Numbered from the stretch's first letter, positions 9,772 through 43,568 are shown. The stretch is 64,000 nt of DNA from Nitrospirota bacterium (GCA_016207885.1 JACQZE010000003.1:421117-485116); one strand, 5' to 3'. The notes: generated from the letters alone by a model not told the origin. Numbers and translations are program-made.

Positions 9772-9855
9772 ATAACTCCCCCTTCCCCCTCTTAACCTAA
9801 GAGGGGGGTAAGACTTATTCCTCCCCTTAAGATAAGGGGAGGCGAGGAGGGGTTA
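9772..9855. repeat. composite C/G-rich palindromic element, intergenic copy between nifK and nifEN
   Basis: ataactcccccttcCCCCTCTTAacctAAGAGGGGGG...CCTCCCCTTAAGATAAGGGGAGG. Its first 23 nt are identical to the copy inside nifEN at 10408. Confidence 0.8.
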
Positions 9856-9876
9856 TGAAATAAAAAAGGACCGACA

Positions 9877-12561
9877 ATGTTAACTAACATAGACAAATTA
9901 ACAGAAAGCGGCTGCTCTTCCGAAAAGCAGGACAAGGTATGCCGTTCGCGGGGCGGAGAGTCATGCGCCTTTGACGGAGCTATGATCGTACTCCAGCCTA
10001 TTGCGGATACGGCGCATATCGTCCACGGGCCGATTGCGTGCTGCGGCAACACATGGGAAGGAAGAGGCACGTTATCTTTAAATGGCAACCTGCACAGAAT
10101 GGGCTTCACAACCGACATGAATGAGATAGATATTGTCTATGGCTCTGAGGAAAAATTGTATGCGGCAATAATTAAGACATTTGAAGCTGTAAAACCAAAA
10201 GCTATTTTTGTCTATGCAACATGCGTAAGCGGTTTAATCGGCGAGGATATCGAGTCCGTATGCAAAAAAGCGGAAACCGAAATCGGAGTTCGTGTCATTC
10301 CGGTAAACGCACCGGGCTTTGTCGGCCCGAAGAATTTAGGGAATAGGATAGCAGGGGAAGTGCTGCTGGATCATGTGATAGGGACAGGGGAATTGCCTTC
10401 CAAAATCATAACTCCCCCTTCCCCCTCTTATCTTAAGAGGGGGGCAGACATCAATCTCATCGGAGAGTATAACATCGCAGGAGATTTGTGGCTTGTGGAG
10501 CCGGTGTTAAAAAAAGCTGGAATGCAAATCCTTTCACGCATCACAGGCGATTCGACTTTTGAGGAGATAACTTACGCGCATCATGCAAAGCTGAATGTAG
10601 TGGTTTGCAGCCGCGCATTGATAAATGTTGCGAAGGAGATGGAGAAGCGGTACGGCATTCCTTATATTGAAGTTTCGTTCTTTGGCAAGACAGAGATGAC
10701 AAAGGCCTTGAGGCTGATTGCAAGCAAGCTGTCATCTAATTACAAAATCCCCCTTAATCCCCCTTTTTCAAAGGGGGAGATTGGATTCCCCTCTTTGGAA
10801 AAGAGGGGTCAGGGGAGATTTTTTCAAATAGAGTCAATAATTGCAAGAGAAGAAGAACGTCTTGAAGAAAAACTGAAAATATATTCTCACCTCAAAGGCA
10901 AAAAGGCTGTTCTCTACACCGGCGGGGTGAAGAGCTGGTCATTCATCTCCGCGCTTCTTGATCTGGGAATTGAGATAGTTGCTGTCGGAACAAAGAAGAG
11001 CACATTTGAAGATGAAGAGAAGATGAAAGAGATACTTGGAGAGAATGCTCCGCTTGTTGAAGATGTGATGCCTAAGAATCTCCTGAGGCTCATGAAAGAG
11101 AAAAACGCCGACATACTTGTTGCGGGCGGGAGAAATCAGTATCTCGCGATTAAGGAAGGCTTTCCTTTTGTTGATGTGAATCAGGAGAGGCATACGGCAT
11201 ACGCGGGATATGAAGGGCTGGTGAATTTGGCTGAGCAGATAAGCAACAGCATACGGTTTTATAACCCGAAGGCAAAAGTCGGAAGCCGGAAGTCTGAAGT
11301 AAGAACGAAATCCGAAATTGTTATCAATCCGTTGAAGCACTCACAGTCCATCGGGGCTGCGATCGCGTTTCAGGGGATCAATAATTCAATTCCGGTCATT
11401 CACGGGGCGCAGGGGTGTAACTTCCTTGCAAAGGTTTTATTGACAAAGCATTTCAGAGAGCCCATCGCTCTTCAAAGCACAAAGCTCTTTACCGAGGACG
11501 TGGTGATGGGAAGTGAGGATAAGTTAACCGGCACATTGGACAGCATCATAGACAAGAATGCTCCTGATGTTATCGGAGTTCTGACGTCAGGGCTGTCAGA
11601 GGCAAAGGGAGATGATCTTGAAGGGACATTGAAGGTAAGCGGTCATAGGCCAGGGGTCAGGATTATCCATGTCCCGACTCCTGATTATGAAGGCGGGCTT
11701 GAAAGCGGTTACGCAAGGGCGGTAGAGAACATCATTGAGTCTGTGGTGCCTAAAAATATTGCTGATGCCAGACCCTTGACCGATGACCGTCTTGTCAATG
11801 TCCTTGTCGGCTCGCATCTGACCCCTGCTGATTTTACAGAGTTAAGAGAGATTATTGAAGCCTTCGGCTTAAAGCCGGTCATATTTCCAGACCTTTCCTC
11901 GCTTGACGGCAGCAGGCAGGGCTTTTCACCACTTGCCGCAGGCGGGACAGATGTTAAGGACATAAAAAGAATGGCAGAGGCATCGTTCACAATTGCTATA
12001 GGAAAAAGCATGGAACCGGGCGCGAGGTTGTTGAACGAAATATGCGGCATTGAGTATACGGTGTTTGAAAGCCTTTCCGGGCTCAGGGATGTGGAAGTCT
12101 TCATGCAGATGCTTTCATTCCTGAGCGGCAATCCGGTTCCTGCCAGATACGACAGACAGAGGAGAATCCTGATCGACGGGATGAGGGACGCGCATTTTTA
12201 TTTCGGAAACAAAAAGGTTTGCATCGCGCTTGAGCCTGATATGGCTGTTCAGACTTCAAGATGGATCAGTGAGATGGGCGCGGAGGCAACGCTTGCGGTC
12301 ATTCCTCAGAATACGGAGAGCTCAGGAAATATTATTGCGAAAGAGGTGGTTGTCTCTGACCTGTTTTCGATAGCGGGTGATTATGACCTGCTAATTTCAA
12401 ACTCACACGCTGAAGATACGGCAAAGAGGCTGGGTGTTCCATTGTATCAGGCGGGATTCCCTGTTTATAAAGTTATAGGTAACAGTTCAAGGATCACCAT
12501 TGGATACAGAGGCACGCTTGCGATGATCAATGAAGCGGCAAATCTGCTGCCAAAGGAGTGA
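9877..12561 (+). CDS. nifEN: fused NifE-NifN FeMo-cofactor biosynthesis scaffold
   Basis: 894 aa. The N-terminal half is NifE-like (CAFDGAMIVLQPIADTAHIVHGPIACCGN). The C-terminal half is NifN-like (IGAAIAFQGINNSIPVIHGAQGCNFL). It contains two in-frame repeat insertions. Confidence 0.85.
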   Translation: MLTNIDKLTESGCSSEKQDKVCRSRGGESCAFDGAMIVLQPIADTAHIVHGPIACCGNTWEGRGTLSLNGNLHRMGFTTDMNEIDIVYGSEEKLYAAIIKTFEAVKPKAIFVYATCVSGLIGEDIESVCKKAETEIGVRVIPVNAPGFVGPKNLGNRIAGEVLLDHVIGTGELPSKIITPPSPSYLKRGADINLIGEYNIAGDLWLVEPVLKKAGMQILSRITGDSTFEEITYAHHAKLNVVVCSRALINVAKEMEKRYGIPYIEVSFFGKTEMTKALRLIASKLSSNYKIPLNPPFSKGEIGFPSLEKRGQGRFFQIESIIAREEERLEEKLKIYSHLKGKKAVLYTGGVKSWSFISALLDLGIEIVAVGTKKSTFEDEEKMKEILGENAPLVEDVMPKNLLRLMKEKNADILVAGGRNQYLAIKEGFPFVDVNQERHTAYAGYEGLVNLAEQISNSIRFYNPKAKVGSRKSEVRTKSEIVINPLKHSQSIGAAIAFQGINNSIPVIHGAQGCNFLAKVLLTKHFREPIALQSTKLFTEDVVMGSEDKLTGTLDSIIDKNAPDVIGVLTSGLSEAKGDDLEGTLKVSGHRPGVRIIHVPTPDYEGGLESGYARAVENIIESVVPKNIADARPLTDDRLVNVLVGSHLTPADFTELREIIEAFGLKPVIFPDLSSLDGSRQGFSPLAAGGTDVKDIKRMAEASFTIAIGKSMEPGARLLNEICGIEYTVFESLSGLRDVEVFMQMLSFLSGNPVPARYDRQRRILIDGMRDAHFYFGNKKVCIALEPDMAVQTSRWISEMGAEATLAVIPQNTESSGNIIAKEVVVSDLFSIAGDYDLLISNSHAEDTAKRLGVPLYQAGFPVYKVIGNSSRITIGYRGTLAMINEAANLLPKE
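10408..10448. repeat. palindromic element copy inserted in-frame in nifEN
   Basis: ataactcccccttCCCCCTCTTAtctTAAGAGGGGGGcagac is translated as ITPPSPSYLKRGAD within the NifE domain. Confidence 0.8.
10746..10825. repeat. palindromic element (two hairpins) inserted in-frame in nifEN
   Basis: aatCCCCCttaatCCCCCtttttcaaaGGGGGagattggattCCCCTCTTtggaAAAGAGGGGtcaGGGGagatttttt is translated as KIPLNPPFSKGEIGFPSLEKRGQGRFFQ. Its 3' half is nearly identical to the copy at 41893. Confidence 0.8.
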
Positions 12562-17103: not shown

Positions 17104-17146
17104 TTTGATCTAATATGAGAACCTTTTAAATGCAAAGGGTTTGATC

Positions 17147-17164
17147 CTGGCATGCTTTTAGCAT
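17147..17164 (+). promoter_or_regulatory. sigma-54 promoter nearly identical to the nifH promoter
   Basis: cTGGCATgctttTAGCAt versus nifH cTGGCATactttTAGCAt. The -12 GC lies about 15 nt before the annotated ATG. Confidence 0.55.
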
Positions 17165-17176
17165 AATAGATAAGTT

Positions 17177-18667: not shown

Positions 18668-18778
18668 CATTTTAACTTTCCCTACCAAATTGTCATATAC
18701 CTTCTTTTTTTGTCAGTAAAGATACTTTATTGTAGCTTTAACGCCATAATGTTTCCTTTAAAATCAAAGTGTTATAAA

Positions 18779-18796
18779 CTGGCACGCTTCTCGCAA
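18779..18796 (+). promoter_or_regulatory. sigma-54 promoter (TGGCAC-N5-TCGCA)
   Basis: aCTGGCACgcttcTCGCAa is a strong -24/-12 match. It shares an extended upstream block (CCTTTAAAATCA..GTGTT..AAACTGGCA) with the nifH promoter. Confidence 0.6.
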
Positions 18797-18806
18797 TAAG
18801 CTACGT

Positions 18807-24000: not shown

Positions 24001-24150
24001 TATTCCCCCTTATAAAAGCCAACAGTAGGCGCTTTAAGCGGGGGATACAGGGGGATGTTGAGATAAAACACACCCCCTAACCCCTCTTATTAGAGGGGAT
24101 GATTCCGGTCAAGCCAACAGTAGGCAAGACGAAGCCGCCGGAATGACATA
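24001..24150. repeat. composite palindromic element cluster, intergenic (GATase-glnA)
   Basis: tattCCCCCttataaaagccaacagtaggcgctttaagcGGGGGatacaGGGGGatg ... cacaCCCCCtaaCCCCTCTTATTAGAGGGGatgattccggtcaagccaacagtaggcaag...gccgccggaatgac. Confidence 0.75.
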
Positions 24151-25725: not shown

Positions 25726-28441
25726 TTAATCGTCCTTATATCTCCTGAAATTCTTTACCAGCTTTTCAAAGGTATCCGGCTTATACTTTTCAAAGTCTCC
25801 TTCATCCACAAAGACAAAATTAAACCTGCATTTTTTCTGTGATGCATTGATGTCCGCGCACCAGTTTTTCAGCCGTTCCATTTTCAAAGGCACATCAAGG
25901 TCTTCAAGGCCTTTCGTCTCCACAATATATGTTTCCTTTTCATTGGCCTTGACTATAAAGTCCGGGTAGTAATTTGAGATGCTGCCGTCGGCAGTCACAT
26001 AGTCGAGCCTGAAATGAACGGCAAGGTAGTTCTTTGCGTAAGAAATAATATCTGGGCATTGCTCCAGGAATGATGCAAAGAGGAGTTCAAGGCGGCTGTC
26101 TCCGATGATTTTATTGAAGATGCTTTTTTGAGGAATGAGAAAGCCCTGATCCTTCACAACAAACGGCCTTGTCTGCCGCAATTTAATATAGTCCCGTATC
26201 TCGGCGCTTCCTTTATCAACCACTGTAAGCTCATTTATCTTTTTCTTGAATGTCTCAATTATAGTCTTGCTTGCCTCAAGCTCAGAGAGATTGCGGATTG
26301 TGTTCAGATCGTCAATATCCGCAATCCTGTCAAACAGATGTTCGGCTATAAAGGTTTTTACCTTTCCATAAAGCACATCATAACCGCTTATCAGGCGGAG
26401 GTCTTTCATAATGACCTGTGCAAAGTAGCCGATTACGCTCCGGCAATCGGCAGCCATTGCCGAATCAAGATATGTCGTGTGCGTAATCTCACCGGTTGTT
26501 ATATCTTTAAAAACAATCTCCCTTTTCTCCTCTTCGGAAAATTGCCTGTACTCCACCTTTCTTGTGCCGAACATTGAGGGCGCAAGCTCTTCAAGATTTT
26601 TGTATTCCCTGTATATCCTTGGGGAAAGCACAGGGATTTCTATATCAAGCCCGTCAATGTCCTTTTTCCTGTTTTCATTGTCTATCTCAATAATGATCGG
26701 CGCCTTTGCAGCAGTGCCTTCACCCATCGGCTTGCGCTCAAGCTCAACGCCCTCGCTCTGGATGGACTCAACAAAATCCATAAAGGCATTGGTCCCGACA
26801 ACGCTGACATACTCTGTCGTATCAGTTCCCGGATACATCCTTCTCAATCCCCGGCCGAGCGTCTGCTCCGGCAGGATATTGCTCTTTGCTGCATACGCCC
26901 TTAAGCCGACGATGGTAGTTACGTTCCTGACATCCCAGCCTTCCTTGAGCATGAGGACCGAGACAATTGCCTTATACTGGCTTTCCATTCCGTCAATCTT
27001 GTTGGACGCCTTTCTCAGCTTTTCAAGCTCATCTTTGGACTTCTTAGAATCAGCCTCGGAGATCTCACCGTTATTGTTCGTATGAATAACAAGCACGGCG
27101 TCTTTAAATTCAGGATAAGTATTCTCAAGATGTTCTGCCACATCATCACAGTTTTTTGTGTCATCCGTCATTATGAAAAGCACAGCCTTTTTACTCATCT
27201 TCTCATGTTCGGCATATGCCTTGCGCCATTCTTCCACGCCAAGCGCAATATAGTCAGCGTATTTTTCCGTATAGCGTGAGCTTTGACGCTCCTGAAGTTT
27301 TGTCCGGCTTGCCGCATCCGGCAATACGGGATGCTTGACCACGTTCTGCGTAATTGCCTCAACAAGCGGATAATCCGAGACCGTCTGCACAAAGATCGCC
27401 CCGTTATTGTGCTTGGGAGTTGCCGTTACATCTATTTGCAGAGAGAGGAAATGGTCCTTCTGCTTCAGGCGGTTGTGGATGTCTTCAATGGATTTAAACC
27501 ACGCCAGACGGTTGTCATGGATGTGGTGAGCCTCATCATTAATGACAATAAGCTCGTCAATTTCACGGACAATGACACCGAGGTCAACCTTTGAGTCAGT
27601 GGTTTTACCCGTGGGCCTTTTACCGAGAAAGTAGTCCGTCAAATCATCATCGTCAAAGTTCGGCTCAATGTCATCTCCGGCATATACGCGATGGATATTT
27701 GTGAGAAAGATATTGCCGGTCTTTCGGATAATGGACACATCATCCTGAATATGCAAGGTCAGTTGAAAATCGTCCTGCCAATTCCTGCCCTCATAGCCAT
27801 TATCCGGCAAGAGCGGGTCATCAAAGAAAACCCGAAGCCCGTCAAAGTCAGCACGAAGACGGTCAAGGACAATAATATTAGGCGCAATGATAAGGAAGTT
27901 TGTTGACAGCTTTGAATCAGGCTCATAGAGCTTGTGGAAATAACACCATGTAACTACGAGGCTCATAACCTTTGTCTTGCCGCTTCCGGTTGCCATTTTT
28001 ATGACAAGACGAAGCCAGTCTTCATAAAACATCCCTGCGGATACCGCTCCTGATGAGTCATAACGTATCAGGTCGTATTTGTCTTTGACCTTAACAACTT
28101 CATAGAGATAAATAACCGTTTCAATAGCCTCGCGCTGGGCAAAATAATAACGAAACTCATACCCCCCTTTATTTCCCCCCTTATCAAGGGGGGATTGAGG
28201 GGGGGTAAGGAATAATGTGTTCCGTTTTGAACCACCAGTTAATCAGGGCTTTGCTTGTTTCAGTTGCGCCATCATAACCGGAATCACGCCATTGTTTAAC
28301 ATCCCTTCGTATTTTATTGACCAGCGGAGGCAGGAGTTTGCCATAACTTGATTCCCACAAAGCCTCATCAGCCGGAAACCAGCGGATATCGGGATGAAGT
28401 ATTTCATAGGAGGAATTTGGGAATGAAGGATGAATTGCCAT
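25726..28441 (-). CDS. res: type III restriction enzyme Res subunit (helicase), split by a frame change inside a palindromic-repeat insertion
   Basis: The 768-aa ORF 25726..28032 starts at Walker A (TGSGKT) and carries the DEAH box (IVINDEAHH) plus a C-terminal endonuclease region. The N-terminal 85 aa (28184..28441, ...ALINWWFKTEHIIPYPPSIPP) are in another frame. The helicase frame reads through the repeat as ...SLPPLNPPLDKGGNKGGYEF... back to a stop at 28240. Confidence 0.6.
28156..28210. repeat. palindromic element copy inside res (at the frame break)
   Basis: ataCCCCCCtttatttCCCCCCTTATCAAGGGGGGattgaGGGGGGGtaagg contains C6-7 and G6-7 homopolymers. Confidence 0.75.
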
Positions 28442-28672: not shown

Positions 28673-30080
28673 TCAGGCCCAATATGGCACATACTTGGCA
28701 TAACGTTTTGACTTGCTATCTGGATCGTCCAGCTTTACCAGACCTTCATCAACTGCATCTGAAATAATACGTGATATTGTTTCTGCCTTGATCTCTGGCA
28801 ACTTGAAACGCTCTCGCAGGCTCTGGTTTGTCATTTTTTTGTTACTGACATACCGTAAACAACAGTGCTGATAACAAGCCCTGCTTCGCTCTTTTCTGTC
28901 CATCTCCTCAAATGCTTTGTGTGCAAACAAGATAACACTTGTATTACGCTCTCCAACGCGGAAATCAGGAGCTGGCAACTGCCATGCCTCAGCCAGCCCG
29001 ACCACTTTGTCAATGCCGCTGCTCTTTTCTTCGCATATTCCAAAACGCCGCATTAAATCGGCCAGTCGATCATTGCGAGCTTTATACTCATCAATAAAGC
29101 GGTCAGGAGGAATTAACGGTTTGCCGGGATTAGAAATCTCAATTCGATCAGAATATATTTCTACCATAACAAACGAGCCGAAATCCTCTACATCCTGATG
29201 GATGAGAGCATTTGCAACCAGTTCCCGAATAGCGAGTTCAGGATACATCCGCACATCGCTTCGAAGTGCCTGGCCAACCACTTCATTCGCGGGCAACTGG
29301 CTATTTATAAAATCGATAAGTCCCTCGAACCCGACTGCATACCCTTTAGTGCCCGGCTGATCCCGAACAGTCTCAAGTTTGTTTGAGCCACGATAAACAA
29401 TCACCCTTGGCTTTGCGTTGAAGTCCGTTGAAATCGCGCAGATCCTTGGCCAGTAAAATAGCTCCAAGATTTGTAATGTCCCAGCCATTGCTGTTTTTTA
29501 TAATAAGATGTTCGCTCTCACAACGAGCTAAGACTCCATCTCGATTAGCGGGATAAGGGAGTTTGAGCAATTCGAACAGGCTTTGTGTATCAAGAAGGCG
29601 TACAACCTTGTCAGCATCAGCGCCTTTTAAGGCAGGGCGTAAAAGGAATTCGGGCTTCCCCTCATCGAAAATCCGGCGGAGAAGGTCCTCGGTCATAGGC
29701 ACAAGGTCTTCACCCGCCCTCATGAGATATGCCCCTTCAAAGGCCAGAGCCGTTCCTGCCGGACGGGAAGGTACAATGAAAACGAGAACTCGCCCATCGG
29801 GATGAGAAACTTCTTCAATCTCTACCCTTATGCGCAGTGTTTCGGCAATACGTGCCTTGATGGCACCAAGGTCAGAAAAAGCAAGCGTTCCTACCACTCT
29901 CCGGGGCAGACGGTTTGACACTCCCAATACCAGTTGGCCGCCGCCTTCATTAGCAAGCGCTACGCAATAGCGCAACAGTTTCACTGTATCAAATTGCTGT
30001 TTGGCCTCTTTAAATTCCAGCCGCTCATGTTCTCGGGGAACGGTCAGTAATTGGTCAATGGCATCCGGTGTCCAGCTCAC
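28673..30080 (-). pseudogene. AlbA_2 (divergent AAA/Schlafen-like) + HATPase_c_4 domain protein, split into two overlapping ORFs
   Basis: ORF 29373..30080 carries the AlbA_2 N-domain (EHERLEFKE..., ...NLGAILLAKDLRDF). ORF 28673..29488 carries the ELVANALIHQD...IEISNPG HATPase_c_4 core. The frames switch within the microrepeat gaTTTCAACGgaCTTCAACGc (about 29420-29440). Confidence 0.55.
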
Positions 30081-32365
30081 ACCCCCACCTCCACAATTTT
30101 CATCGTATCATTTCCGAATATGTCCACAACCTTGACGGCAATTTTATAGCGTCCTTTCTGGCATTCATGAAACGGGGTTTTTAGTTCGAGCGTCCGGTCT
30201 TTTTTTGTGCGGAAGCTCTGCCATTCGTTTTCAAATACAAAGTCGCCTGTCCAGACTTCTTCTATTTCGTTGGTCTCATCTTTTTTTACTCTGACGATCT
30301 CGCGCCTGCTTTCAAAGTTGAAATCCACGCTCCAGTAATCTATCCAGTCTGTCCAGTTTTTGGTAAGAACTTCTTTGGTTACGATACCGTCCTTGTCCTT
30401 CATGACCTTTACGATCTTGCCCTGCTCGACAACGATTTTATTTGCGCCGTTTTTCAGGCTTGTGGCTGCATTGTCTATGCTGTCCTGTGAGTAGTAGACG
30501 GAGAAGTCGGTAAGCTCGACGGCCACCCCCCTCTTTCCCCCCTTACTAAGGGGGGATGAAAGGGGGGTCACATGCGGCTTTACCTCAATGAAAGACACAT
30601 CGTGAAAAACAACCTGGTTCTTCTCTACCGCACGTTTGTCAAAGACCTCGCGGGGGATGTATTTCATGGCAAGGTCAATGCCTTTTGACTTTGCCTCTTC
30701 CTGAATATTCGGGAACAGTCCCATCTCAAACTCAAAGGCGAGGACGTCCACACGGGAAATGCGTTTTGAGCGGCACTCAAGTATGACCTCTTCTACAAAG
30801 AGCCTTGTTACGGGCAGGTTGACTGGCCCCACGGCAACCATGCGTCCCGCCTTTTTGCCCTGAAAGCATCTGAAGTTCTCAATTGTCTCCGCGCGGTAGG
30901 CATGGAGGATAAGGTTGATAAAGTCTTTTTCCTTTTGCTCAAGCTGTTTCTGTTTCTCTTCTTCCCGAAGGTTTAGATTCACGCCGATATAGTGCGCCCG
31001 CTCGTACTTGCCGAGATTGAGGATTTCAAAAGCACGGAAGTCCTTGCCCTCTTCCTTCAACTGCCGCTGAACGCCGATCATGCGCTTGCGGGTTGTGTGA
31101 ATGGCGAACTTGCCGAGGTCTGAGCCGATCCACTTACGCCCCAGCTTTTCAGCAACGGCAAGCGTGGTGCCGGAGCCGCAGAAGAAGTCGGCCACGATGT
31201 CGTTTTCGTTGCTACTGGCTTTGATGATGCGATCGAGAAGTGCTTCGGGTTTTTGGGTGGGGTAGCCTGTACCTTGGGTTGAGGATGCGCCAAGCCCAGT
31301 GATATCATCCCACAAGGACTGAACAGAAACACCTAAACCATCATCCAAATATTGTTTCTTCTGAGGAACTGTTCCTGGTGAAGTCTGAACAATCAACTCG
31401 TTAGCCAGCAAGTCTTTCATAGTTGCCTCGCTGTAACGCCAGTATCGCGTAACGCCCATAATTTCATAGCTGGGGTTTCCCTTAGCCGCACCGCCCGGTC
31501 CGATCATGCTAACGAGTCTATATTTTCTTCCTGTGCCTGGATCGGTATATTTGAAGAATGAATCAATGTATTCCTGCGAGTACGGAAGAAACACATTATT
31601 GAAGACGTAGGCCTGAGATTTTGCGTAGGCAAATATAGTGTCCGTATTTGCCCCCATGTACTTGCTACCTTGTCCTATGTTGCCTTTTACTGTGTGCGCG
31701 CGTTTCCATGTAATTTCATTGATGAAGTTGTCTGTTCCGAAAACCTCATTCAACACAAGCCGAATATAAGCACTTACCCGCCAATCACAATGCACATAAA
31801 TACTCCCATCCTCTGCAAGCAAATCCCGCATGAGAGAAAGCCGTTCATAAATCATTGCAATGAAGCTGTCAGCGCCTTTGCCCCATGTATCGCGGTAGGC
31901 TAATTCTTCAAGCACATTAGGTTTCTTGGTGAAGGTCTCATCGCCGATCTCTATATCCATCGAGAAGTCCGCGCCAACGTCAAACGGCGGGTCTATGTAG
32001 ATCAGCTTGATGCCGCCCTGCTTTTCGACCTCATCACGGAGAGGGCCGTTCTTCAGGGAAGATAGAATGAGCTTGTTATCACCCCAGATAAGTTTGTTTG
32101 TCCAGCCGGACTTCTGCCGTCCCCTCGTATCGAAGAGCCCGAACTGAGCATTGGAATCATCCGGCTTCTCGGCACGCGGCTCATCCACCTGTTCAATCAC
32201 CTGAAAGGGCAGGACGATATTACAAACCTCGCTGGTCTTCCCGTTCCAGACCAGCTCCACTTCTCGCTTGTCGTCAAACAATAGAAAACGGTACTTGTCC
32301 GGCAGAGGCTTGCCGGACTCTATCAGCTTCAGTATCTCGCGCTTTTCGTTGTCAGTGAGTTTCAT
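30077..32365 (-). CDS. mod: type III restriction-modification Mod subunit (N6-adenine DNA methyltransferase)
   Basis: [14 protein letters not shown] (motif IV, DPPF) and [23 protein letters not shown] (motif I). 762 aa. Contains an in-frame repeat insertion. Confidence 0.8.
30524..30570. repeat. palindromic element copy inserted in-frame in mod
   Basis: ccaCCCCCtctttCCCCCCTTACTAAGGGGGGatgaaaGGGGGGtcac is translated (minus strand) as [15 protein letters not shown]. Confidence 0.75.
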
Positions 32366-34259: not shown

Positions 34260-34311
34260 TTATTCTATTACAAATCAAGATATCGGTTATATTAGCAAAA
34301 AATCATTAATT

Positions 34312-37110
34312 ATGCCTTTTAAACCATTAATAGAAATATCCACGGCTGCTCGCGACACTTCTGACCCGAAGAGGGCTGAAAGGAACCTCGCAAGGTTCTT
34401 TGAAGAGAATCATAAGGGCGGGCTTGCCCATGAACATTTAGAAATTACAGCCAGGCTCTTTGCGTCAAGCCAGTTTCTCGCGAATTTCTGCATCGCCAAT
34501 CCTGAAGAGCTATATTCTGCAATAGATGAGAGCAATAATGAGGTTACCAAAGAGCTTCTTCAGCTAAGGGCGGTTAGAGAACTCGTCTTCAGTGAAGGAG
34601 CTGATACAAATGATGTAATAAAGGCGCTCAGGATATTCAAGAAGCGTTATCTGCTGAGGATAACCTTGAGAGACCTTTCAGGCAAAGCGGGTATCCAGGC
34701 CATAATGCATGAACTCTCCCGTCTTGCGGAGGTTGTTATTTCCGAAGCGCTCTCCTTCTCTCTAAGATCCAATCAGTCAAGGTTCGGCGCGCCTTCTGAA
34801 AGCGCTGTCACTCTTATCGCCCTTGGAAAACTTGGAGGCGAGGAACTTAATTACAGCTCGGATGTTGACCTGATAGCTGTTTATGCCAATGATGAGGGAG
34901 AGACATCAGGCGTCGCAAACCCGTCAGGTGTGATCTTCAACAGGATAAGCAACCATGAGTTCTATTGCAAGGCCGTAGAGCTCTTCAGTAAATTGCTCTC
35001 CGCGCAGACTGAAGACGGGGTTGCATACAGGGTTGACCTGAGGTTAAGGCCGCAGGGGCAAAAGGGAGACATAGCCCTGCCTGTCAAGGCATATCAGACT
35101 TATTATGAGTCATGGGGCCGGACATGGGAGAGGATGGCGCTTATAAGGGCGAGGCCTGTAGCAGGCGATACAAAGTTGGGCGCGGCGTTCATGAAGACGG
35201 CAAATTCATTCGTCTGGAGAGAGACGCTTGACTTCACTGAGATAGAGGAGATCAAGGGGCTGAAGAAGAGCATAGACTCCGCATTCTCAAGAGATGATAT
35301 TAAACGCGGTTACGGCGGCATCAGGGAGGCTGAGTTCTTTGTCGAGACGTTTCAGCTTCTGTTTGCCGCAAAGAACAGCTCTTTAAAGACCTGCAGGATA
35401 CTTGACGCCATCAAGGCGCTCAAGGATATGAAGATGATCCCTGAGGAAGACCTTACGATACTTTGGGAAAACTACCTTTATTTAAGGCGCGTTGAGCACT
35501 ATCTTCAGATGAAGGAAGACCTTCAGACACACACTCTGCCTTCATCTGATGAAGAGATTGAAGCTCTCGCGAAGAATATGGGCTTTCCGTCCGGCGAGGA
35601 CTTTCTTGCAGGCCTGCGTGTGAGGAGGATGCAGGTCAAGTCCATGTACAACGGGCTGCTCGGCACCACTGAGGATGTCCATACTGAGGCGCTGAACCTG
35701 CTGGAAGGCGAGCTGAAAGACCATGAGCTCAGAAGCTACCTTTCATTCAGAAAGGTGAGAAAGCCTGATCAAAGTTTAATGAACCTCAACAAGATAAGAG
35801 AGCACATGCGCGTCTTCCGCACGATGCAGGAGCGTTCTCTGTCAAGAAAGGTCATGCCGCAGCTTCTTGAAAGCGCCCTGACCGCTGAGGATCCTGACAG
35901 CGCTATCGCCGGCATTGAAAGCCTGCTGACATCATTCGGCATAAAGACAGCCCACCTTACAGCCCTTATGGAGCAGAAGGAACTGATGGAAGGCATTATC
36001 AAGATATTTTCATTAAGCTCTTATCTCTCAAGGATATTCCTCAGCAGCCCGTACTATTTTAATATGCTGATCGAAGACTGGTTCATATATAAGACGCTCA
36101 AGTCCATAGAGGAAAAACTCCAAAAAACAACCAGTGAAAATGAAGATTTTAATTTTCAGGCCGCAAGGTTCAGGAGGCTTGAAGAGGTCCGTCTCGGAAT
36201 GCTCTTTCTTCAGAAGATACTTGATACTGAGACCCTTTTCAGGGACATGTCATATCTTGCGGAAGCGGTCATTAACGTGATAACGGATAAATATATTCAG
36301 AGCGGGCTTTCCGTTGTCGCACTCGGAAAACTCGGCGGAAGAGAGATGACCTTCGGATCCGACCTTGACATAATCTTTATTGCAGAGACATCTGAAGCAG
36401 CTTCAGCAGCTGAAAAGATCATGAAGTCGCTGACATCATATACCGACGCCGGGCTGCTCTACAGTGTTGATACAAGGCTGAGGCCCGACGGTTCAAAAGG
36501 CAGCCTTGTCAAGAATATAAAAGGATATAAAGATTACTATCTTGAGAAGGCGCATCCGTGGGAACTTCAGGCTCTGCTTCGGGCAAGGCCTGTGGCCGGC
36601 GACGCGGAGATAGGAGATGAGTTTTTGTCTATGGCTTCATATGTGATAAAAAAGAGAGGCATTGATGTGAAGAAGCAGGAGATAGCCGGCATGAGGAAGA
36701 GGATAGTGAAAGAGCTGTCGCGGGAATCCGACGGCATTGATATCAAGCTCGGCCCCGGAGGCATAGAGGAGATCGAATTTCATGTCCAGTATCTCCAGCT
36801 TCATAACGCGGAAAAGTATCCGGAGGTGCTTGTCCAGAATACGCCAGCCGCGATCAAAAGGCTTGCCAAATCCGGAATAATCTCAGAGACGGAAAAGACG
36901 ATATTGCTTGATGCGTATGAATACCTGCGAAAGATCGAGACGCTTATGAAGCTGAACAGCATAAATATTATCAACTCTGACCCTGACTTCATAGTGCCTG
37001 CGGCTCTCTTTATGAAGCATAAGAACAGCGATGAGTTCCTCGCACGCCTGAGGTCTGTGAGAGAGGGCGTGACCAAAGTTATCTTTGATGTTATAGAATA
37101 TAAACCATGA
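34312..37110 (+). CDS. glnE: bifunctional glutamine synthetase adenylyltransferase/adenylyl-removing enzyme
   Basis: Two nucleotidyltransferase motifs (LIALGKLGGEELNYSSDVDLIAVY and VVALGKLGGREMTFGSDLDIIFIA) in a 933-aa protein. The start was trimmed to the ATG at 34312. Confidence 0.85.
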   Translation: MPFKPLIEISTAARDTSDPKRAERNLARFFEENHKGGLAHEHLEITARLFASSQFLANFCIANPEELYSAIDESNNEVTKELLQLRAVRELVFSEGADTNDVIKALRIFKKRYLLRITLRDLSGKAGIQAIMHELSRLAEVVISEALSFSLRSNQSRFGAPSESAVTLIALGKLGGEELNYSSDVDLIAVYANDEGETSGVANPSGVIFNRISNHEFYCKAVELFSKLLSAQTEDGVAYRVDLRLRPQGQKGDIALPVKAYQTYYESWGRTWERMALIRARPVAGDTKLGAAFMKTANSFVWRETLDFTEIEEIKGLKKSIDSAFSRDDIKRGYGGIREAEFFVETFQLLFAAKNSSLKTCRILDAIKALKDMKMIPEEDLTILWENYLYLRRVEHYLQMKEDLQTHTLPSSDEEIEALAKNMGFPSGEDFLAGLRVRRMQVKSMYNGLLGTTEDVHTEALNLLEGELKDHELRSYLSFRKVRKPDQSLMNLNKIREHMRVFRTMQERSLSRKVMPQLLESALTAEDPDSAIAGIESLLTSFGIKTAHLTALMEQKELMEGIIKIFSLSSYLSRIFLSSPYYFNMLIEDWFIYKTLKSIEEKLQKTTSENEDFNFQAARFRRLEEVRLGMLFLQKILDTETLFRDMSYLAEAVINVITDKYIQSGLSVVALGKLGGREMTFGSDLDIIFIAETSEAASAAEKIMKSLTSYTDAGLLYSVDTRLRPDGSKGSLVKNIKGYKDYYLEKAHPWELQALLRARPVAGDAEIGDEFLSMASYVIKKRGIDVKKQEIAGMRKRIVKELSRESDGIDIKLGPGGIEEIEFHVQYLQLHNAEKYPEVLVQNTPAAIKRLAKSGIISETEKTILLDAYEYLRKIETLMKLNSINIINSDPDFIVPAALFMKHKNSDEFLARLRSVREGVTKVIFDVIEYKP

Positions 37111-40820: not shown

Positions 40821-40829
40821 CGGCTGATC

Positions 40830-43568
40830 ATGCACATACACAACCTCTCAACAGATGCCGCGCTCAAGAGCCTTCTCACTTCTTCTAAAGGGCTCTCCGA
40901 AGCCGAGGCGTTAAAAAGGCTTAAGGAATACGGATCGAATGAGATAAAGGAAGTAAGGAGAACTCCGCTCTATAAAAAGTTCATTTCGCAGTTCACGCAT
41001 TTTCTTGCCATCCTCCTCTGGATCGCTGCCGTGCTCTGCTTCTTCTCAGAATTCATGCATCCGGGCGAAGGATTGCTCTCACTCGGCATAGCGATAACAG
41101 TGGTAATAATTATCAACGCGGTCTTTACATTCATACAGGAATACCGTGCGGAAAAGGCTGTGGAGGAGCTGAAGAAGCTCCTGCCGTTCAGGGTAAAGGT
41201 ATTGAGAGACGGCGCGGTAAAAGAGATAGAGTCCGGCAATGTGGTTCCCGGAGATATGATGCTCCTCAGCGAGGGCGACAAGGTGCCTGCGGACGCGAGG
41301 ATAATTGAATCAAACCGCCTGACGGTAAATAACGCGCCTCTCACAGGCGAATCTGATTCAAAGCAGAGAAGGCCTGACGAATCTATTGGCGAGTTTTTTG
41401 AGAGCCCGAATATCGTATTTGCCGGAACACTTGTTGTAAGCGGCAGCGGAAGGGCTGTGGCGTTCGCAACAGGCATGTCCACTGAGTTCGGCAAGATAGC
41501 CCATCTCACCGGCGGGGTACAGGAGTTACTGAGCCCTCTTCAGAAAGAGATCACCAGAGTAACAAAGATCGTAGCGGTCATCGCGATGATCACAGGGATA
41601 TCTTTTTTCACTCTGGGATTTTTTGTTGGAAAGGGGTTTTGGCAGAATTTCCTATTTGCTATCGGCATTATTATCGCGAATGTGCCTGAAGGCCTTTTGC
41701 CGACTGTCACGCTATCACTTGCAATGGGAAGCCAGAGAATGGCAAAGAAGAAGGCGTTGATAAAGACGCTCAATTCTGTTGAGACGCTCGGCTCTGTCAC
41801 AGTCATCTGCACTGACAAGACAGGCACGCTCACACAGAACAAGATGGAGGTTCAGAAGATTTGGAGATTGGAAAGGCAGGGGTTAGAAGATAGACAGCCC
41901 CTCTTTGGAAAAGAGGGGGAAGGGGAGATTTTAAAAAAAGATAATTCCTTCAGCATGCTTATGACAACCGCATCCTTCTGCAACAATGCTGAATTTGACG
42001 GGGAGAGATACAAAGGCGATCCAACAGAGGTTGCGATCCTTAAAGCCGCGAGAAAGGCTATCGGCGATCTTCATTCTGAAAGGGTTTACGAGATACCTTT
42101 TGATTCAGAGAGAAAGAGGATGACGACGGTAAATAAGACAGTTGTTTCTACCAAGGGCGCCATGGAGACTGTCTTTCCGCTATGCAATGCAATTCTTATA
42201 AACGGCAAAGCTGAGGCGATGAGCGAGGATAATAAAAAGACGATCACTCAGGCTTATCATTCAATGATGGATGAAGGATTAAGAGTTATCGCATTCGCGT
42301 ATAAGGAAATAGAAAATCCCCCCATCCCCCCTTTGACAAAGCCAACAGTAGGTGCCTTAAACAGGGGCGAGGGGGGATTAGCAGACTCATCACTTGAAAA
42401 AGACCTGATCTTCGCAGGCCTTATGGGGCTTCAAGACCCGCCACGATTGGAAGTGCCGGAAGCGATAAGAAAATGTAAGGCAGCAGGCATTAAGGTCATC
42501 ATGATAACAGGCGATGCGGGCAGGACAGCGGCTGCGATAGGAAGGCAGATCGGGCTTATAAAAAATGAACCGGTACTTATTGAAGGGCATGAGATGAACG
42601 CCATGACTGATAATGCGTTAAGAGAGAAGCTTTCATCAGAAGAGATCATCTTCGCGCGCATGACTCCTCTTCATAAGATGAGGATAGTCTCTGTTCTGCA
42701 GGATGAGGGCGAGCGTGTTGCCGTGACCGGCGACGGGGTCAATGACGCGCCCGCGCTGAAGAAGGCGAACATCGGCATTGCGATGGGAATCACGGGAACA
42801 GATGTCGCAAGAGAGGCTTCTGACATGATCCTTCTTGACGATAATTTCGCCTCGATCGTCAACGCGGTAGAAGAGGGAAGAAGCATTTTTTCTAATATCA
42901 GAAAATTCATCAGCTACATATTTGCATCCAACATACCTGAGGCTGTTCCGTATATCGGATATATAATTTTCAATATCCCTCTTCCTCTTACGATCATGCA
43001 GATACTTGTTATCGACCTTGGGACAGACCTGTTTCCCGCTCTTGCGCTTGGCGCCGAGAGGCCGACAAAAGATGTTATGAGCCAGCCTCCGAGAAGCCCG
43101 GAAGAGAGGCTCCTGAACTTCAACACGCTCGGCAGGGCATATTTATTCCTCGGCCCTATTGAGGCGCTCGCAGGCATATTCGGATTCTTCTATGTGCTCA
43201 ATGCCGGAGGATGGCAGTGGGGAACGATGCTCCCTGCGAATAATCTGCTTTATATGCAGGCAACAACAGCATGCCTTGCCGGAATTATCATCTCACAGAT
43301 AGGCAATGTCTTTGCGTGCCGATCATCTAAAGAATCCGTATTCAGCATCGGGGTCTTCTCTAACAGACTCATCATGTTCGGTATAATGTTAGAGATAATT
43401 CTTTCGGCATTTATCATCTACAATCCTATTGCAAATAAAATCTTCGGGACAGCGCCTCCCGGACAAAAGATATTGCTGGCCCTTATTCCTTTCGGCATCG
43501 GCCTGTTTTTAGCAGAGGAATTGAGGAAATTTTATGTCAGGAGGCTGGATAGAAAACATCATAATTGA
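40830..43568 (+). CDS. P-type cation-transporting ATPase (E1-E2, type II-like)
   Basis: ICTDKTGTLTQNKM (phosphorylation site), TGDGVNDAPALKKANIGIAMG and about 10 TM helices. 912 aa, with two in-frame repeat insertions. Confidence 0.85.
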   Translation: MHIHNLSTDAALKSLLTSSKGLSEAEALKRLKEYGSNEIKEVRRTPLYKKFISQFTHFLAILLWIAAVLCFFSEFMHPGEGLLSLGIAITVVIIINAVFTFIQEYRAEKAVEELKKLLPFRVKVLRDGAVKEIESGNVVPGDMMLLSEGDKVPADARIIESNRLTVNNAPLTGESDSKQRRPDESIGEFFESPNIVFAGTLVVSGSGRAVAFATGMSTEFGKIAHLTGGVQELLSPLQKEITRVTKIVAVIAMITGISFFTLGFFVGKGFWQNFLFAIGIIIANVPEGLLPTVTLSLAMGSQRMAKKKALIKTLNSVETLGSVTVICTDKTGTLTQNKMEVQKIWRLERQGLEDRQPLFGKEGEGEILKKDNSFSMLMTTASFCNNAEFDGERYKGDPTEVAILKAARKAIGDLHSERVYEIPFDSERKRMTTVNKTVVSTKGAMETVFPLCNAILINGKAEAMSEDNKKTITQAYHSMMDEGLRVIAFAYKEIENPPIPPLTKPTVGALNRGEGGLADSSLEKDLIFAGLMGLQDPPRLEVPEAIRKCKAAGIKVIMITGDAGRTAAAIGRQIGLIKNEPVLIEGHEMNAMTDNALREKLSSEEIIFARMTPLHKMRIVSVLQDEGERVAVTGDGVNDAPALKKANIGIAMGITGTDVAREASDMILLDDNFASIVNAVEEGRSIFSNIRKFISYIFASNIPEAVPYIGYIIFNIPLPLTIMQILVIDLGTDLFPALALGAERPTKDVMSQPPRSPEERLLNFNTLGRAYLFLGPIEALAGIFGFFYVLNAGGWQWGTMLPANNLLYMQATTACLAGIIISQIGNVFACRSSKESVFSIGVFSNRLIMFGIMLEIILSAFIIYNPIANKIFGTAPPGQKILLALIPFGIGLFLAEELRKFYVRRLDRKHHN
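41893..41932. repeat. palindromic element copy inserted in-frame in the P-type ATPase
   Basis: gacagCCCCTCTTtggaAAAGAGGGGGaaGGGGagatttt is translated as RQPLFGKEGEGEIL. It is nearly identical to the 3' half of the copy at 10746. Confidence 0.75.
42314..42383. repeat. palindromic element (long type with aagccaacagtagg core) inserted in-frame in the P-type ATPase
   Basis: aaaatCCCCCCatCCCCCCtttgacaaagccaacagtaggtgccttaaacaGGGGcgaGGGGGGattagc is translated as ENPPIPPLTKPTVGALNRGEGGLAD. It shares the core with the intergenic copy at 24001. Confidence 0.75.

Follow-up and report, generated by a model that had tools for sequence, protein, structure and literature searches.

A C-run/G-run hairpin repeat family, probably REP-like, inserted in frame in nifEN and other genes of a Nitrospirota bacterium, with a DUF559 endonuclease as its likely partner

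Short palindromic repeats lying in frame within bacterial genes are already known in kind, from the Rickettsia palindromic elements (RPEs), intragenic REPs and the multicopy sequences of Geobacter. RPEs (Ogata et al. 2000, 2002; PMC10969869) are confined to Rickettsia and measure about 100-150 bp; each family encodes its own conserved peptide, which is thought to lie at the protein surface. REPs and REPINs are stem-loops of 20-40 nt with an unpaired tag at one end that are present as many repeats (PMC3116915; PMC3733652), in singlets, dimers and clusters, mostly outside genes with some REP copies inside ORFs. Multicopy sequences inside genes were noted briefly in the genome papers of Geobacter metallireducens and G. 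bemidjiensis, with no mechanism or partner gene proposed (PMC2700814, PMC2996986). MITEs such as Correia/NEMIS, Nezha and ERIC are likewise non-autonomous, structured and high-copy, with occasional in-frame ORF fusions (PMC10969869); they originate from DDE insertion sequences, span 70-300 bp and have terminal inverted repeats as well as target-site duplications. The nucleases of the Vsr/DUF559/DUF2726 group are encoded by selfish genes that are found in introns, in inteins or free-standing (PMC3424549), and the known Vsr-fold (EDxHD) homing endonucleases, for example I-Bth0305I (PMC3239194), share their nuclease fold with DUF559 and home into specific host-gene sites.

The window examined here, a 64-kb stretch of DNA from a Nitrospirota metagenome-assembled genome (MAG), contains 11 hairpin units at 8 loci, all between 9.7 and 42.4 kb; the original prediction had claimed at least nine copies, and C-run/G-run palindromes are present everywhere it placed them. 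Each unit is a perfect 7-10-bp stem with a C-run as the 5' arm, a G-run as the 3' arm and a 3-4-nt loop, and most units bear a one-sided unpaired G-run tag, GGGGAGATTTT, the conserved tag of the commonest subtype being GGGG(A)GATTTT. Three forms were distinguished, namely singlets, nested units (C-tag, hairpin, G-tag) that make a longer folded hairpin, and doublets; the repeat as such measures about 35-45 bases, with individual units of 26-59 nt and a doublet of 80 nt. The units, their host genes and one adjacent palindrome are as follows.

9772..9808, minus strand: singlet, intergenic between nifK and nifEN; C-run tag ATAACTCCCCC, TT, 10-bp hairpin at 9785-9807
9816..9856, plus strand: singlet, intergenic, adjoining the 9772..9808 unit; hairpin CCTCCCCTTAAGATAAGGGGAGG, CGA, G-rich tag GGAGGGGTTAT; folds at -10.0 kcal/mol, z -3.6
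9877..12561, plus strand: host gene, fused nifEN, 894 aa (Pfam Oxidored_nitro, 1e-191)
10408..10448, minus strand: singlet, in frame in nifE, aa 178-191 = ITPPSPSYLKRGAD
10746..10825, no strand: doublet, in frame in nifE, aa 290-317; first half C-tag AAAATCCCCC and hairpin 10759-10777, then a 10-nt spacer; second half hairpin 10788-10808, TCA and GGGGAGATTTT
24001..24058, plus strand: long-hairpin variant, intergenic between a GATase gene and glnA; C5...G5 stem capped by GCC-AACAGTA-GGC, then ATACA, GGGGG; weak fold, z -0.8
24069..24100, minus strand: singlet; C-tag CACCCCC, TAA, hairpin CCCCTCTTATTAGAGGGG
24100..24146, no strand: separate palindrome family, ATTCCGG...CCGGAATGAC (ends CCGGAAT), with the GCC-AACAGTA-GGC cap
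25726..28441, minus strand: host gene, res, type III restriction subunit (Pfam ResIII)
28156..28210, no strand: nested, inside res; C6 tag, hairpin C6TTATCAAG6, G7 tag; folds at -17.9 kcal/mol
30077..32365, minus strand: host gene, mod, type III modification methylase, 762 aa (Pfam N6_N4_Mtase)
30520..30572, no strand: nested, in frame in mod; C6 tag, hairpin C6TTACTAAG6, G6 tag; folds at -17.9 kcal/mol, z -3.9
40830..43568, plus strand: host gene, P-type (type II) cation ATPase, 912 aa (Pfam E1-E2_ATPase and related domains)
41893..41932, plus strand: singlet, in frame in the ATPase gene (..QPLFGKEGEGEIL..); hairpin 41898-41918, GAA, GGGGAGATTTT
42314..42383, no strand: nested long hairpin, in frame in the ATPase gene (ENPPIPPLTKPTVGALNRGEGGLAD); C6 tag, C6...GCC-AACAGTA-GG...G4, G6 tag

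That the hairpin family is real was confirmed by its excess over shuffled sequence. The pattern C5-N2-7-C4-N6-14-G4 matched 13 times, at 7 sites, where 100 dinucleotide shuffles predict 0.08, two stricter patterns gave 6 matches apiece against 0.00, and a scan for perfect hairpins (stem of at least 7 bp, starting with CCCC) recovered 9 units against 0.06 in mononucleotide shuffles; two extra long hairpins, at 24005-24054 and 42326-42376, appeared when up to 3 mismatches were allowed. The predicted hairpins were borne out by DNA folding of the perfect 7-10-bp stems (-8.8 to -17.9 kcal/mol, z -2.1 to -3.9), the two long hairpins folding more weakly than the other units. Structure is what is conserved in the family: at the one stem position that the search pattern left free, 129 of 135 copies have a Watson-Crick pair, which switches between T-A (103), A-T (25) and G-C (1), and the 3' flank AGATTTT is conserved among the same 135 copies. 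No Rfam family matches the unit.

One of the cores originally proposed, aagccaacagtagg, is an apical mini-hairpin, GCC-AACAGTA-GGC; it caps long stems of two different kinds and so does not count as another core within one hairpin. The supposed copy at 24001-24150 comprises the units 24001..24058 and 24069..24100. The remaining palindrome, 24100-24146, was ruled out as a member of the hairpin family, ATTCCGG...CCGGAAT being a different palindrome that is only adjacent; peptides related to it (..GQAGMT..) were found in NifEN homologues.

Seven of the 11 units are genic (nifEN, mod, res and the P-type ATPase gene) in a window whose coding fraction is at least 0.84. As predicted, the six genic copies are lineage-specific insertions, each missing from homologues of 74-91% identity when NifEN, ATPase, Mod and Res were aligned, and five of them (two in nifEN, one in mod, two in the ATPase gene) keep the reading frame. 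The exception, in res, is a single frameshift at 28199-28205, where the element's G7 run (read as C7 in the coding direction) has one additional base; deleting one base from this run restores a single Res ORF of 904 aa. An 82%-identical homologue lacks the res insert, as do most of the 60 homologues aligned; that of mod, whose product matches EcoP15I Mod in the PDB, is missing from four homologues of 63-82% identity (P0241, P0270, P0275, P0296).

The fused NifEN of PDB entry 9i0g matches the window protein at E=8e-215 and is gapped at each of the two insert sites, and both inserts are missing from a 78%-identical relative (P0005/L122). The second site (10746..10825) is empty in all three relatives whose DNA was compared (L121, L122 and L123), and the first is occupied in L121 and L123 by the 24069..24100 subtype. 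The nifE copy at 10408..10448 differs from its intergenic twin at 9772..9808 by one loop base, which turns TAA into TAT in the NifE frame. In an AlphaFold model (overall pLDDT 77.7) both NifE inserts fall in low-confidence coil: residues 180-187 (pLDDT <50) lie between H152-167 and E190-196, and residues 292-309 (pLDDT <50) between confident elements.

The first NifE site is the short linker before INLIGEYN named in the original prediction, a variable loop that ranges among 120 homologues from 11 aa when uninserted up to 45 aa. Peptides of the P..(K/R)G(G/D/E) type, in several subtypes, were found there in at least 42 of the 120, and unrelated repeat-derived peptides occupy the same NifE loops in many Nitrospirota homologues. 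Similar peptides thus do recur in relatives at the same loops, but they come from different element subtypes, which points to tolerant hot-spots rather than ancestral segments. On the evidence of these alignments, lineage-specific in-frame insertion and the existence of hot-spot loops are demonstrated.

The product of the ATPase gene matches Na,K-ATPase in the PDB at E=3e-171. In a syntenic relative (P0122/L244; 10 syntenic genes, 74-97% aa identity) the ATPase is 91% identical in amino acids and 88% in nucleotides, and both window inserts are missing: 41893..41932 sits within a 51-nt insertion specific to the window, and the segment 42314..42383 is a net 42 nt longer than its counterpart. The relative has its own insert at a third site, with the same GCC-AACAGTA-GGC cap in the opposite orientation. 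With protein ends set aside (a GlnE start-codon artefact and the ATPase C-terminus), internal indels of at least 4 aa between the two genomes comprise the ATPase element sites and one 7-aa indel in rpoC. No target-site duplication or defined insertion junction was readable in the nifEN and ATPase alignments.

Occupancy thus differs between genomes of about 88% nucleotide identity, which demonstrates turnover between close genomes and supports its being fast. As to the shared blocks that the original prediction offered for recent spread, 9772-9794 equals 10408-10430 at 23/23 positions, and 10788-10822 differs by reading from 41898-41932 at 3 of 35 positions, in the spacer only. Copy identity alone is not proof of recency, however, because the same 21-mer occurs in 18 unrelated loci from other sources.

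The family is far from unique to the window. Units of C-run/G-run architecture also turn up in Cyanobacteria, Planctomycetota and Geobacterales, and in metagenomes and viral contigs, with at least 120 unit-bearing loci in each public collection searched; these cross-phylum matches come from patterns that fix much of the sequence, and the abundance and taxonomic spread are to be read as samples rather than counts. Units were found in independent MAGs, complete isolate genomes and plasmids, and units of the same architecture occur in Geomonas and Geobacter genomes (L065, L074, L120), where the likeness to the Geobacter multicopy sequences is drawn from their description. Among the matches listed, ORFs of at least 120 aa contain 26 of the 132 copies from metagenomes and 32 of the 111 from cyanobacteria. 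Genic units average 4.0 stop-free frames out of 6 against 2.5 for intergenic ones, and are read in several frames and both orientations (PLFGKEGLGEI, SPLTPLFQRGE, SPSPSFSKRG and others). The metagenomic figure, the stop-free frames and the TAT of the NifE copy are taken as signs of a purifying filter. A palindrome of C-run and G-run encodes a Pro-rich and then a Gly-rich stretch in any frame or orientation, so that proteins would receive a flexible, hydrophilic loop that they can tolerate.

The predicted RPE-like behaviour is upheld, in that these are palindromic repeats found in intergenic sequence as well as in frame within unrelated genes that still function, with loop-embedded peptides that by description resemble the surface peptide of RPEs; the supposed lack of precedent is not upheld, although the family and its host genes appear not to have been described before. 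The units are shorter than RPEs, occur in several phyla with a Nitrospirota host here, and, being built from C/G runs, give Pro...Gly in any frame instead of a family-specific peptide; they also have a candidate partner gene, where RPEs have none. Size, one-sided tag and the arrangement in singlets and doublets recall REPs, but in place of GTAG/CGTC they have a G-run tag, GGGGAGATTTT or GGGGGGATC, the conserved flank running from its G-run into AGATTTT or ATC. Classification as MITEs was rejected, the units being under 60 nt with no duplication visible at the nifEN and ATPase junctions.

The candidate partner is a free-standing gene for a Vsr-like PD-(D/E)XK protein of about 115 aa with a DUF559 domain (Pfam PF04480, 1e-23 to 1e-48; PDB 3hrl, E=5e-18). 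When the ORFs of 240 loci, picked only for carrying the element, were clustered, DUF559 was the sole small family present in at least 4 loci. A hairpin lies within about 35 nt of all 10 DUF559 ORFs at these loci and on both sides of 5; for 2332 other ORFs of 90-170 aa the corresponding figures are 4.6% and 0.04%. The cassettes read [hairpin, G-tag] gene [C-tag, hairpin], the flanks being inverted copies with tags facing the gene, and the stop codon of the gene is sometimes provided by the tag. One cassette end on an unrelated metagenome contig (L179) is identical at 35/35 positions to 10788-10822 of the window, beside the DUF559 gene, and the right end of another (L125) has the same tag and hairpin as 9772..9808.

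An independent sample, 12 DUF559 genes chosen by tblastn alone against plasmids (4 from Cyanobacteria, 2 from Deinococcus and 1 each from Azospirillum, Sphingomonas, Sinorhizobium, Neisseria, E. coli and Photobacterium), gave the same picture: all 12 have at least one hairpin-plus-tag copy within about 150 nt, and 7 have, by reading, inverted copies on both sides, the flanking inverted repeats spanning about 60 nt in Sinorhizobium. DUF559 genes and hairpins are thus tightly associated physically across phyla. Free-standing DUF559 genes bracketed by dispersed hairpin repeats were not found in the searchable literature. The arrangement resembles REP/RAYT in having a small nuclease gene between inverted repeat copies, but the gene differs, RAYT being an HUH/Y1 transposase.

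We consider it probable that the copies are a small, non-autonomous, REP-like dispersed repeat with DUF559 as its likely partner and with genic copies tolerated in loops. Copies would be gained and lost quickly across the genome, a genic copy persisting only if it kept the frame, lacked an in-frame stop and lay in a surface loop or linker; we infer that the inserted peptides are translated and that the copies are selfish. Spread would be driven by the free-standing DUF559 endonuclease of about 115 aa, bracketed elsewhere by inverted hairpin and tag, so that nuclease and hairpin would form an analogue of REP/RAYT with a different nuclease. By this analogy the system looks like one of REP/RAYT type and would be mobile; that DUF559 itself moves or maintains the copies we regard as an evenly balanced proposition.

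The flanking association is equally compatible with nuclease genes homing into hairpins that already existed and that spread by other means, serving as safe havens much as REPs do for some IS elements. One member of the Vsr/DUF559 group is the homing endonuclease of a group I intron (PMC3424549), a DUF559-containing gene has been placed in the EDxHD homing-endonuclease family (PMC9403480), and the Mod homologue P0261 has an intein-like insert with, by eye, an apparent DUF559-type domain. Two Deinococcus species differ in where the gene sits within their hpa cluster, and it is patchy in E. coli, where ycjD is present in 3378 of 5426 complete genomes (62%). Solo hairpins number 451 against 10 DUF559 genes in the sampled loci, and no DUF559 gene was found in 1.04 Mb of element-bearing viral contigs. 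The 64-kb window has none either, and the same holds for about 90 kb of sequence from four relatives, which weighs against the DUF559 partnership. Against homing, inverted flanks, fixed geometry and tag-supplied stops are more like element ends than a split target, and the doublet required as an empty site (hairpin, G-tag, C-tag, hairpin) was not seen. All doublets found have tags facing outward, whereas cassette tags face inward, so the doublets are not simple internal-deletion derivatives of the cassette either. Insertion into standing hairpins is a serious but minority possibility.

It is unlikely that the hairpins are multiplied host cis elements, such as sites at which mRNA is stabilised or processed, or sites of protein binding or supercoiling, which might for example set nifHDK against nifEN expression and leave genic copies as by-products or translational pause signals. 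Compensatory changes do keep the stems paired, two units lie exactly in the nifK-nifEN spacer, and functions of this sort are on record for the REPs of E. coli (PMC12306157, PMC3733652). Yet at the corresponding positions close relatives have no element and are otherwise unchanged (the short nifK-nifEN spacer of L123 has none at the equivalent of 9772..9808), and the differing occupancy at about 88% nucleotide identity, the use of both orientations in unrelated genes, the lack of an Rfam match and the disruption of res by one copy all argue the other way.

Movement by a Y1 (HUH) transposase of RAYT or TIRYT type, with the DUF559 association incidental, is likewise unlikely. The size and the hairpin-plus-unpaired-tag design match REPs, and the TIRs flanking TIRYT genes share GGGGWSAS, which resembles the tag GGGGAGAT (Di Nocera et al., PMC3733652), but none of the most recurrent ORF clusters that were annotated, from 1.5 Mb of element-bearing loci, was a Y1 transposase, no transposase was among the window ORFs scanned, and the unit lacks the GTAG/CGTC tag by which the RAYT-linked superfamilies are defined, GTAG being confined to the apical cap in the long variants.

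That there was no insertion, and that slippage or low-complexity drift of Pro/Gly linkers or MAG assembly and sequencing artefacts are responsible, is hardly credible: the host sites are indeed variable linkers, and slippage is a hazard of homopolymer runs, illustrated by the additional base in the C7 run of res, but this reading is already contradicted by identical DNA at unlinked loci (23/23, and 35/35 with the unrelated metagenome contig), by the same units in independent MAGs, complete isolate genomes and plasmids, and by clean gaps at the insert sites in homologues.

Among the DUF559 genes taken from plasmids, those of E. coli, Sinorhizobium, Azospirillum and Sphingomonas are flanked by a hairpin CCCTCTCCC...GGGAGAGGG followed by a G-rich tag, a design shared with the present units, although the stems are mixed pyrimidine/purine runs, not pure C/G. 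As a lead only, these flanks may resemble the boxC-type and 'GGGAGAGGG-TTAGGGTGAGGGG' repeats of E. coli.

C-run/G-run palindromes were found at every position at which the original prediction had placed a short palindromic element, and the identical blocks it had seen between copies are real. A loose pattern (C5-N2-7-C4-N6-14-G4) gave 13 matches at 7 sites of the window against 0.08 expected, two stricter patterns gave 6 matches each against 0.00 expected, and a scan for perfect hairpins gave 9 window units against 0.06 in shuffles. With two long imperfect hairpins added there are 11 units at 8 loci, spanning 9.7-42.4 kb of the window and taking the following forms:

9772, 9816, 10408, 24069 and 41893: singlets
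10746-10825: doublet
28156, 30520 and 42314: 'C-tag, hairpin, G-tag' forms, which fold as a nested long hairpin

The unit is asymmetric, with a hairpin followed by a 2-5-nt spacer and a G-run tag, and its commonest subtype is CCCCTCTTW-NNN-WAAGAGGGG, N2-4, GGGG(A)GATTTT. The expected hairpins were recovered by DNA folding as perfect stems of 7-10 bp with 3-4-nt loops (-8.8 to -17.9 kcal/mol for perfect-stem units, z -2.1 to -3.9). Among 135 metagenome copies, the sole stem pair left free by the search pattern was Watson-Crick in 129 (T-A 103, A-T 25, G-C 1), the 3-nt loop varied freely and the flank AGATTTT was 50-90% conserved per position. Two kinds of long stem are capped at the apex by GCC-AACAGTA-GGC. 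The segment AAGCCAACAGTAGG, considered as a nested second-order insertion, was rejected as such; it is the apical mini-hairpin of the long-stem variant and is missing from the 123 loci compared. A reading as intrinsic terminators was also set aside, as the T-run lies 3' of the tag rather than of the stem and the genic copies are mid-gene. No Rfam family matched the window elements or those of eight other loci.

The genes of the window lie in this order:

nif block: nifH, nifD, nifK and a fused nifEN
radical-SAM, ThiF and homocitrate-synthase genes, then two amt genes, a GATase gene and glnA
island with type III res and mod, an AlbA_2/HATPase_c_4 gene and a Fic gene, then glnE, lptF, lptG, a Usp gene and a P-type ATPase gene
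a c-di-AMP riboswitch and an amino-acid permease gene, then rpoC, rpoB and ribosomal protein genes

The genic copies proved to be insertions in all four genes concerned (NifEN, the ATPase, Mod and Res), each of which has homologues without inserts; the original observation was confirmed overall and its interpretation supported. The fused NifEN structure 9i0g, aligned to the window NifEN, has gaps at both insert sites (site 1, 10408-10448; site 2, 10746-10825), and a 78%-identical NifEN (P0005, locus L122) is missing both inserts. Site 2 (about 80 nt) is missing in all three relatives whose DNA was compared, and at site 1 the relatives L121 and L123 carry another subtype, found intergenically at window 24073. 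A syntenic relative (L244, GCA_030646035.1), 88% identical to the window in the nucleotides of its ATPase gene, is without both window ATPase insertions (net 51 and 42 nt) and bears, at a third position, a composite element of its own whose apical cap is the same but oppositely oriented. Ten syntenic genes share 74-97% amino acid identity between the two; apart from one 7-aa rpoC indel, all their internal indels of at least 4 aa fall at the ATPase element sites, a count that leaves out differences at protein ends (a GlnE start-codon artefact and the ATPase C-terminus). Four Mod homologues of 63-82% identity (P0241, P0270, P0275, P0296) read KPHVK----KNSIAVELTDF without the window insert, and a fifth (P0261) carries a comparable insert at that position. 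The Res insert is missing in an 82%-identical homologue and in most of the 60 aligned, a few of which have other repeat-derived peptides in the same loop. No target-site duplications were visible in the nifEN and ATPase comparisons with relatives.

The host reading frame had been said to be kept in five of six genic copies. The exception is res, where a single break arises from an additional base in a G7 run (28199-28205) within the element; a one-base deletion gives a continuous 904-aa Res. This G7/C7 run (C6 would restore the frame) could reflect phase variation, a pseudogene or a sequencing error. Homopolymer runs of the element can switch a gene off via a one-base slip, as in res, and are a potential source of phase variation. 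Palindromic repeats of other families also occur in frame in the NifEN homologues P0006, P0007, P0023 and P0064 (compare window 24100-24146), with the peptides IPACRESSFKNDPGQAGMTE, SGLSGIFPKKDCRQAAMTDN and HCEARSAEAI...LLRGVYPERKN, so that in-frame repeat insertion in the clade is not limited to one family.

Across 120 NifEN homologues (843-993 aa), the loop N-terminal to INLIGEYN ranges from 11 aa when empty up to 45 aa, and at least 42 have peptides of the P..(K/R)G(G/D/E) type, in several subtypes and sometimes two or three in tandem. In an AlphaFold model built with these 120 sequences (mean pLDDT 77.7), for which a 24-sequence model (pLDDT 49.9) was discarded, residues 180-187 and 292-309 are coil with pLDDT <50 between confidently predicted elements (H152-167/E190-196 and H271-287/H313-339), which fits a placement of the NifE inserts in surface loops or linkers. 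The peptides are uniformly of the form Pro...Gly because, whatever the frame, a C-run is translated as Pro and a G-run as Gly, and both strands of the palindrome read alike; predicted junction peptides include ..QPLFGKEGEGEILK.. and ..ITPPSPSYLK...

With seven of the 11 units genic in a window at least 84% coding, there is no preference for genes. Only 26 of 132 metagenome copies and 32 of 111 cyanobacterial copies lie in ORFs of at least 120 aa. Genic units have 4.0 of six frames free of stops compared with 2.5 of six for intergenic units, and the NifE copy and its intergenic twin have different bases where an in-frame TAA would otherwise arise in NifE. The elements are best read as a REP-like non-autonomous repeat, the genic copies being filtered survivors. 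These repeats account for a large share of the otherwise puzzling length differences in conserved Nitrospirota enzymes, NifEN with its 843-993 aa among them, and the inserts provide a natural map of insertion-tolerant loops for NifEN, for P-type ATPases and for the subunits of type III restriction-modification systems. For annotation, repeat-derived Pro...Gly peptides, and small ORFs composed of them, are no real domains.

As the search patterns fix much of the sequence, the taxonomic spread given here is that of a sample rather than a census: CCCCCCTT-N3-4-AAGGGGGG-N3-8-GGGGG occurs at no fewer than 120 loci in species-representative genomes, about 87 of the 120 listed being Cyanobacteria by record titles (consensus ...GGGGGG-YTA-GGGGGGATC), and the remaining listed loci include Planctomycetota, Nitrospirota, Geobacter/Geomonas, other Deltaproteobacteria, Chloroflexota and others; the CCCCTCTT-type pattern occurs at at least 120 loci in metagenomes and at least 120 in viral contigs. 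In the latter (IMG/VR, L257-L376), copies of the CCCCTCTT-type element, tagged GGGGAGATTTAA, are common, several often sharing one contig at about 1 kb spacing, and no DUF559 gene was found in 1.04 Mb of these contigs. In the Microcystis ichthyoblabe chromosome (L063, 6482-6960), at least 12 hairpin-plus-tag units stand in tandem with a 37-nt period (CCCCCCTTATCAAGGGGGGACTAAGGGGGGATCGGCA).

DUF559 is a large and widespread family of uncharacterised function, which includes E. coli YcjD. When ORFs of at least 100 aa from 240 element-bearing loci were clustered, DUF559 (PF04480) was the only small family present in four or more loci. The largest recurrent cluster (43 loci), represented by a multidomain Ser/Thr kinase with AAA_16, was probably joined by single linkage and was therefore rejected as an associated gene; other recurrent clusters were housekeeping genes or Uma2. 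An HMM built from the clustered DUF559 ORFs recovered 10 DUF559 ORFs in 1.66 Mb and gave no match in the window or the relatives' loci. A C/G hairpin lies within about 35 nt of the ORF in all 10 and on both sides in five, compared with 4.6% and 0.04%, respectively, of 2332 other ORFs of 90-170 aa from the same loci. The order is that of a cassette: [hairpin A, N2-3, GGGGGGATTT], 10-20 nt, DUF559 ORF, stop, [AAAATCTCCCC, N3, hairpin B]. The right end of one cassette (L179) is identical at 35/35 positions to window 10788-10822, within nifE, and that of another (L125; ATAACTCCCCCCTT plus hairpin) is of the window 9772/10408 subtype.

As the first sample had been chosen for carrying the element, a second was chosen by DUF559 homology alone (tblastn against PLSDB plasmids; 38 records, 12 examined). 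Read by eye, inverted hairpin-plus-tag copies flank seven of these 12 genes on both sides (two in Pseudanabaena, two in Deinococcus, and one each in Picosynechococcus PCC 7002, Sphingomonas and Sinorhizobium), and at least one copy lies within about 150 nt of all 12. The inverted repeats are about 60 nt long in Sinorhizobium, a TAG stop lies inside the tag in Pseudanabaena, the P. galeata cassette sits within an annotated 4.8-kb CDS, and the gene occupies differing positions in the hpa cluster of two Deinococcus species. It adjoins DUF1156 genes in PCC 7002 pAQ6 (L246) and in a Synechocystis sp. B12 plasmid (L247); in the latter it is flanked by a truncated DUF1156 ORF and the next ORF, so that the cassette may have split a gene there. 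E. coli ycjD adjoins sapF and occurs in 3378 of the 5426 complete genomes searched, and 3' of it (L254) are CCTCACCCCAACCCTCTCCCTGAAAGGGCGAGGGGG-type repeats, which we take to be possibly boxC.

The association and the shared ends of DUF559 genes and elements are plain observations, from which mobilisation is inferred: the partner is likely the DUF559 nuclease gene, arranged like a RAYT gene between REPs. The PDB match of DUF559 is 3hrl, an 'endonuclease-like protein', and the family has been grouped with Vsr and a group I intron homing endonuclease (PMC3424549), one DUF559-containing gene being assigned to the EDxHD homing-endonuclease family (PMC9403480; Taylor et al., PMC3239194). This kinship favours a rival reading in which DUF559 genes home into pre-existing hairpins; against it, the cassette end geometry is fixed and no inward-tag doublets, which would be possible empty sites, were found. 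A Y1 transposase of the TIRYT type might instead move the elements, as TIRYT terminal repeats have a GGGGWSAS motif (PMC3733652), but no such Y1 gene was found among the leading recurrent ORF clusters annotated in the element-bearing loci, and the scanned window ORFs of at least 150 aa included no transposase. That the hairpins are host-functional cis elements is poorly compatible with their differing presence between close relatives and with the disruption of res by one copy.

Mobilisation by DUF559 may be put in a wider form, tentatively and with rather more doubt than confidence. On this view, 'hairpin plus G-run tag' mini-elements would form a superfamily that crosses phyla and is moved or maintained by DUF559 (Vsr-like) endonucleases; this would amount to a second system of the REP/RAYT type, with a PD-(D/E)XK nuclease in place of an HUH transposase. 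The C-run/G-run design would make copies unusually tolerable inside proteins, and the system would continually add Pro/Gly loops to enzymes such as NifEN. The tight multi-phylum association with one small nuclease family offers a directly testable hypothesis for the origin and movement of untagged small palindromic repeats, and the hypothesis proposes a role for DUF559. In one Mod homologue (P0261, Mod alignment columns ~300-590), an intein-like insert ending ...VHN|CGSGTT breaks the conserved methylase motif; by eye it appears to hold a DUF559-type endonuclease domain, which, if true, would link DUF559 to homing-type mobility.

Palindromic repeats are known in frame as RPEs (PMC10969869), REPs are known inside ORFs (PMC3733652), and Geobacter multicopy sequences occur in all frames without frameshift (PMC2996986, PMC2700814). 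The window elements differ from RPEs in size, from GTAG/CGTC REPs in tag and RAYT, and from MITEs in target-site duplication and size. In-frame palindromic insertion is thus known in kind, the added interest lying in the cross-phylum architecture and the DUF559 association. Apart from the SDR families of Elhai et al. 2008, small dispersed repeats reportedly found in cyanobacteria and left out of the comparison, the literature searched gave no description of the element family, and element-sequence searches had no match. No report of such inserts in nif genes was found, and the literature searched on DUF559, EDxHD and Vsr-like proteins showed no link to dispersed repeats and no DUF559 genes bracketed by dispersed hairpins.

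Between glnA and the P-II/glnE genes the window has a variable defence island (25726-33668), which comprises a Fic gene, the type III genes res and mod, and a Schlafen-like AlbA_2/HATPase_c_4 gene that is split into two overlapping ORFs (28673-29488 and 29373-30080); L244 has Vsr, an NgoFVII-type endonuclease and a RadC-Dcm methylase at this position instead. The Fic gene (32544-33668) is flanked by 59-nt direct repeats, 86% identical (32464-32522 and 33832-33890), each with a GCGCGGAC...CCGCGC hairpin 3' of an A-run, which may be a duplicated terminator marking an insertion. The glnE ORF (999 aa) has an 80-aa N-terminal extension (34111-34350) missing in the 919-aa L244 orthologue; it overlaps the antisense P-II gene and is therefore probably a start-codon artefact of ORF listing. 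Two kinds of regulatory feature were also seen:

5807-5853, 17120-17166 and 18752-18798, + strand: a 47-nt conserved upstream block, carrying TGGCAT/C-N5-T(T/C)(A/C)GCA
43626-43760, + strand: c-di-AMP riboswitch (ydaO/yuaA type; 92 bits against a gathering score of 38)

By eye, the three blocks resemble sigma-54 (-24/-12) promoters, one ahead of nifH and the others ahead of two transcription units further downstream. The amino-acid permease gene (43826-45637) lies directly 3' of the riboswitch.
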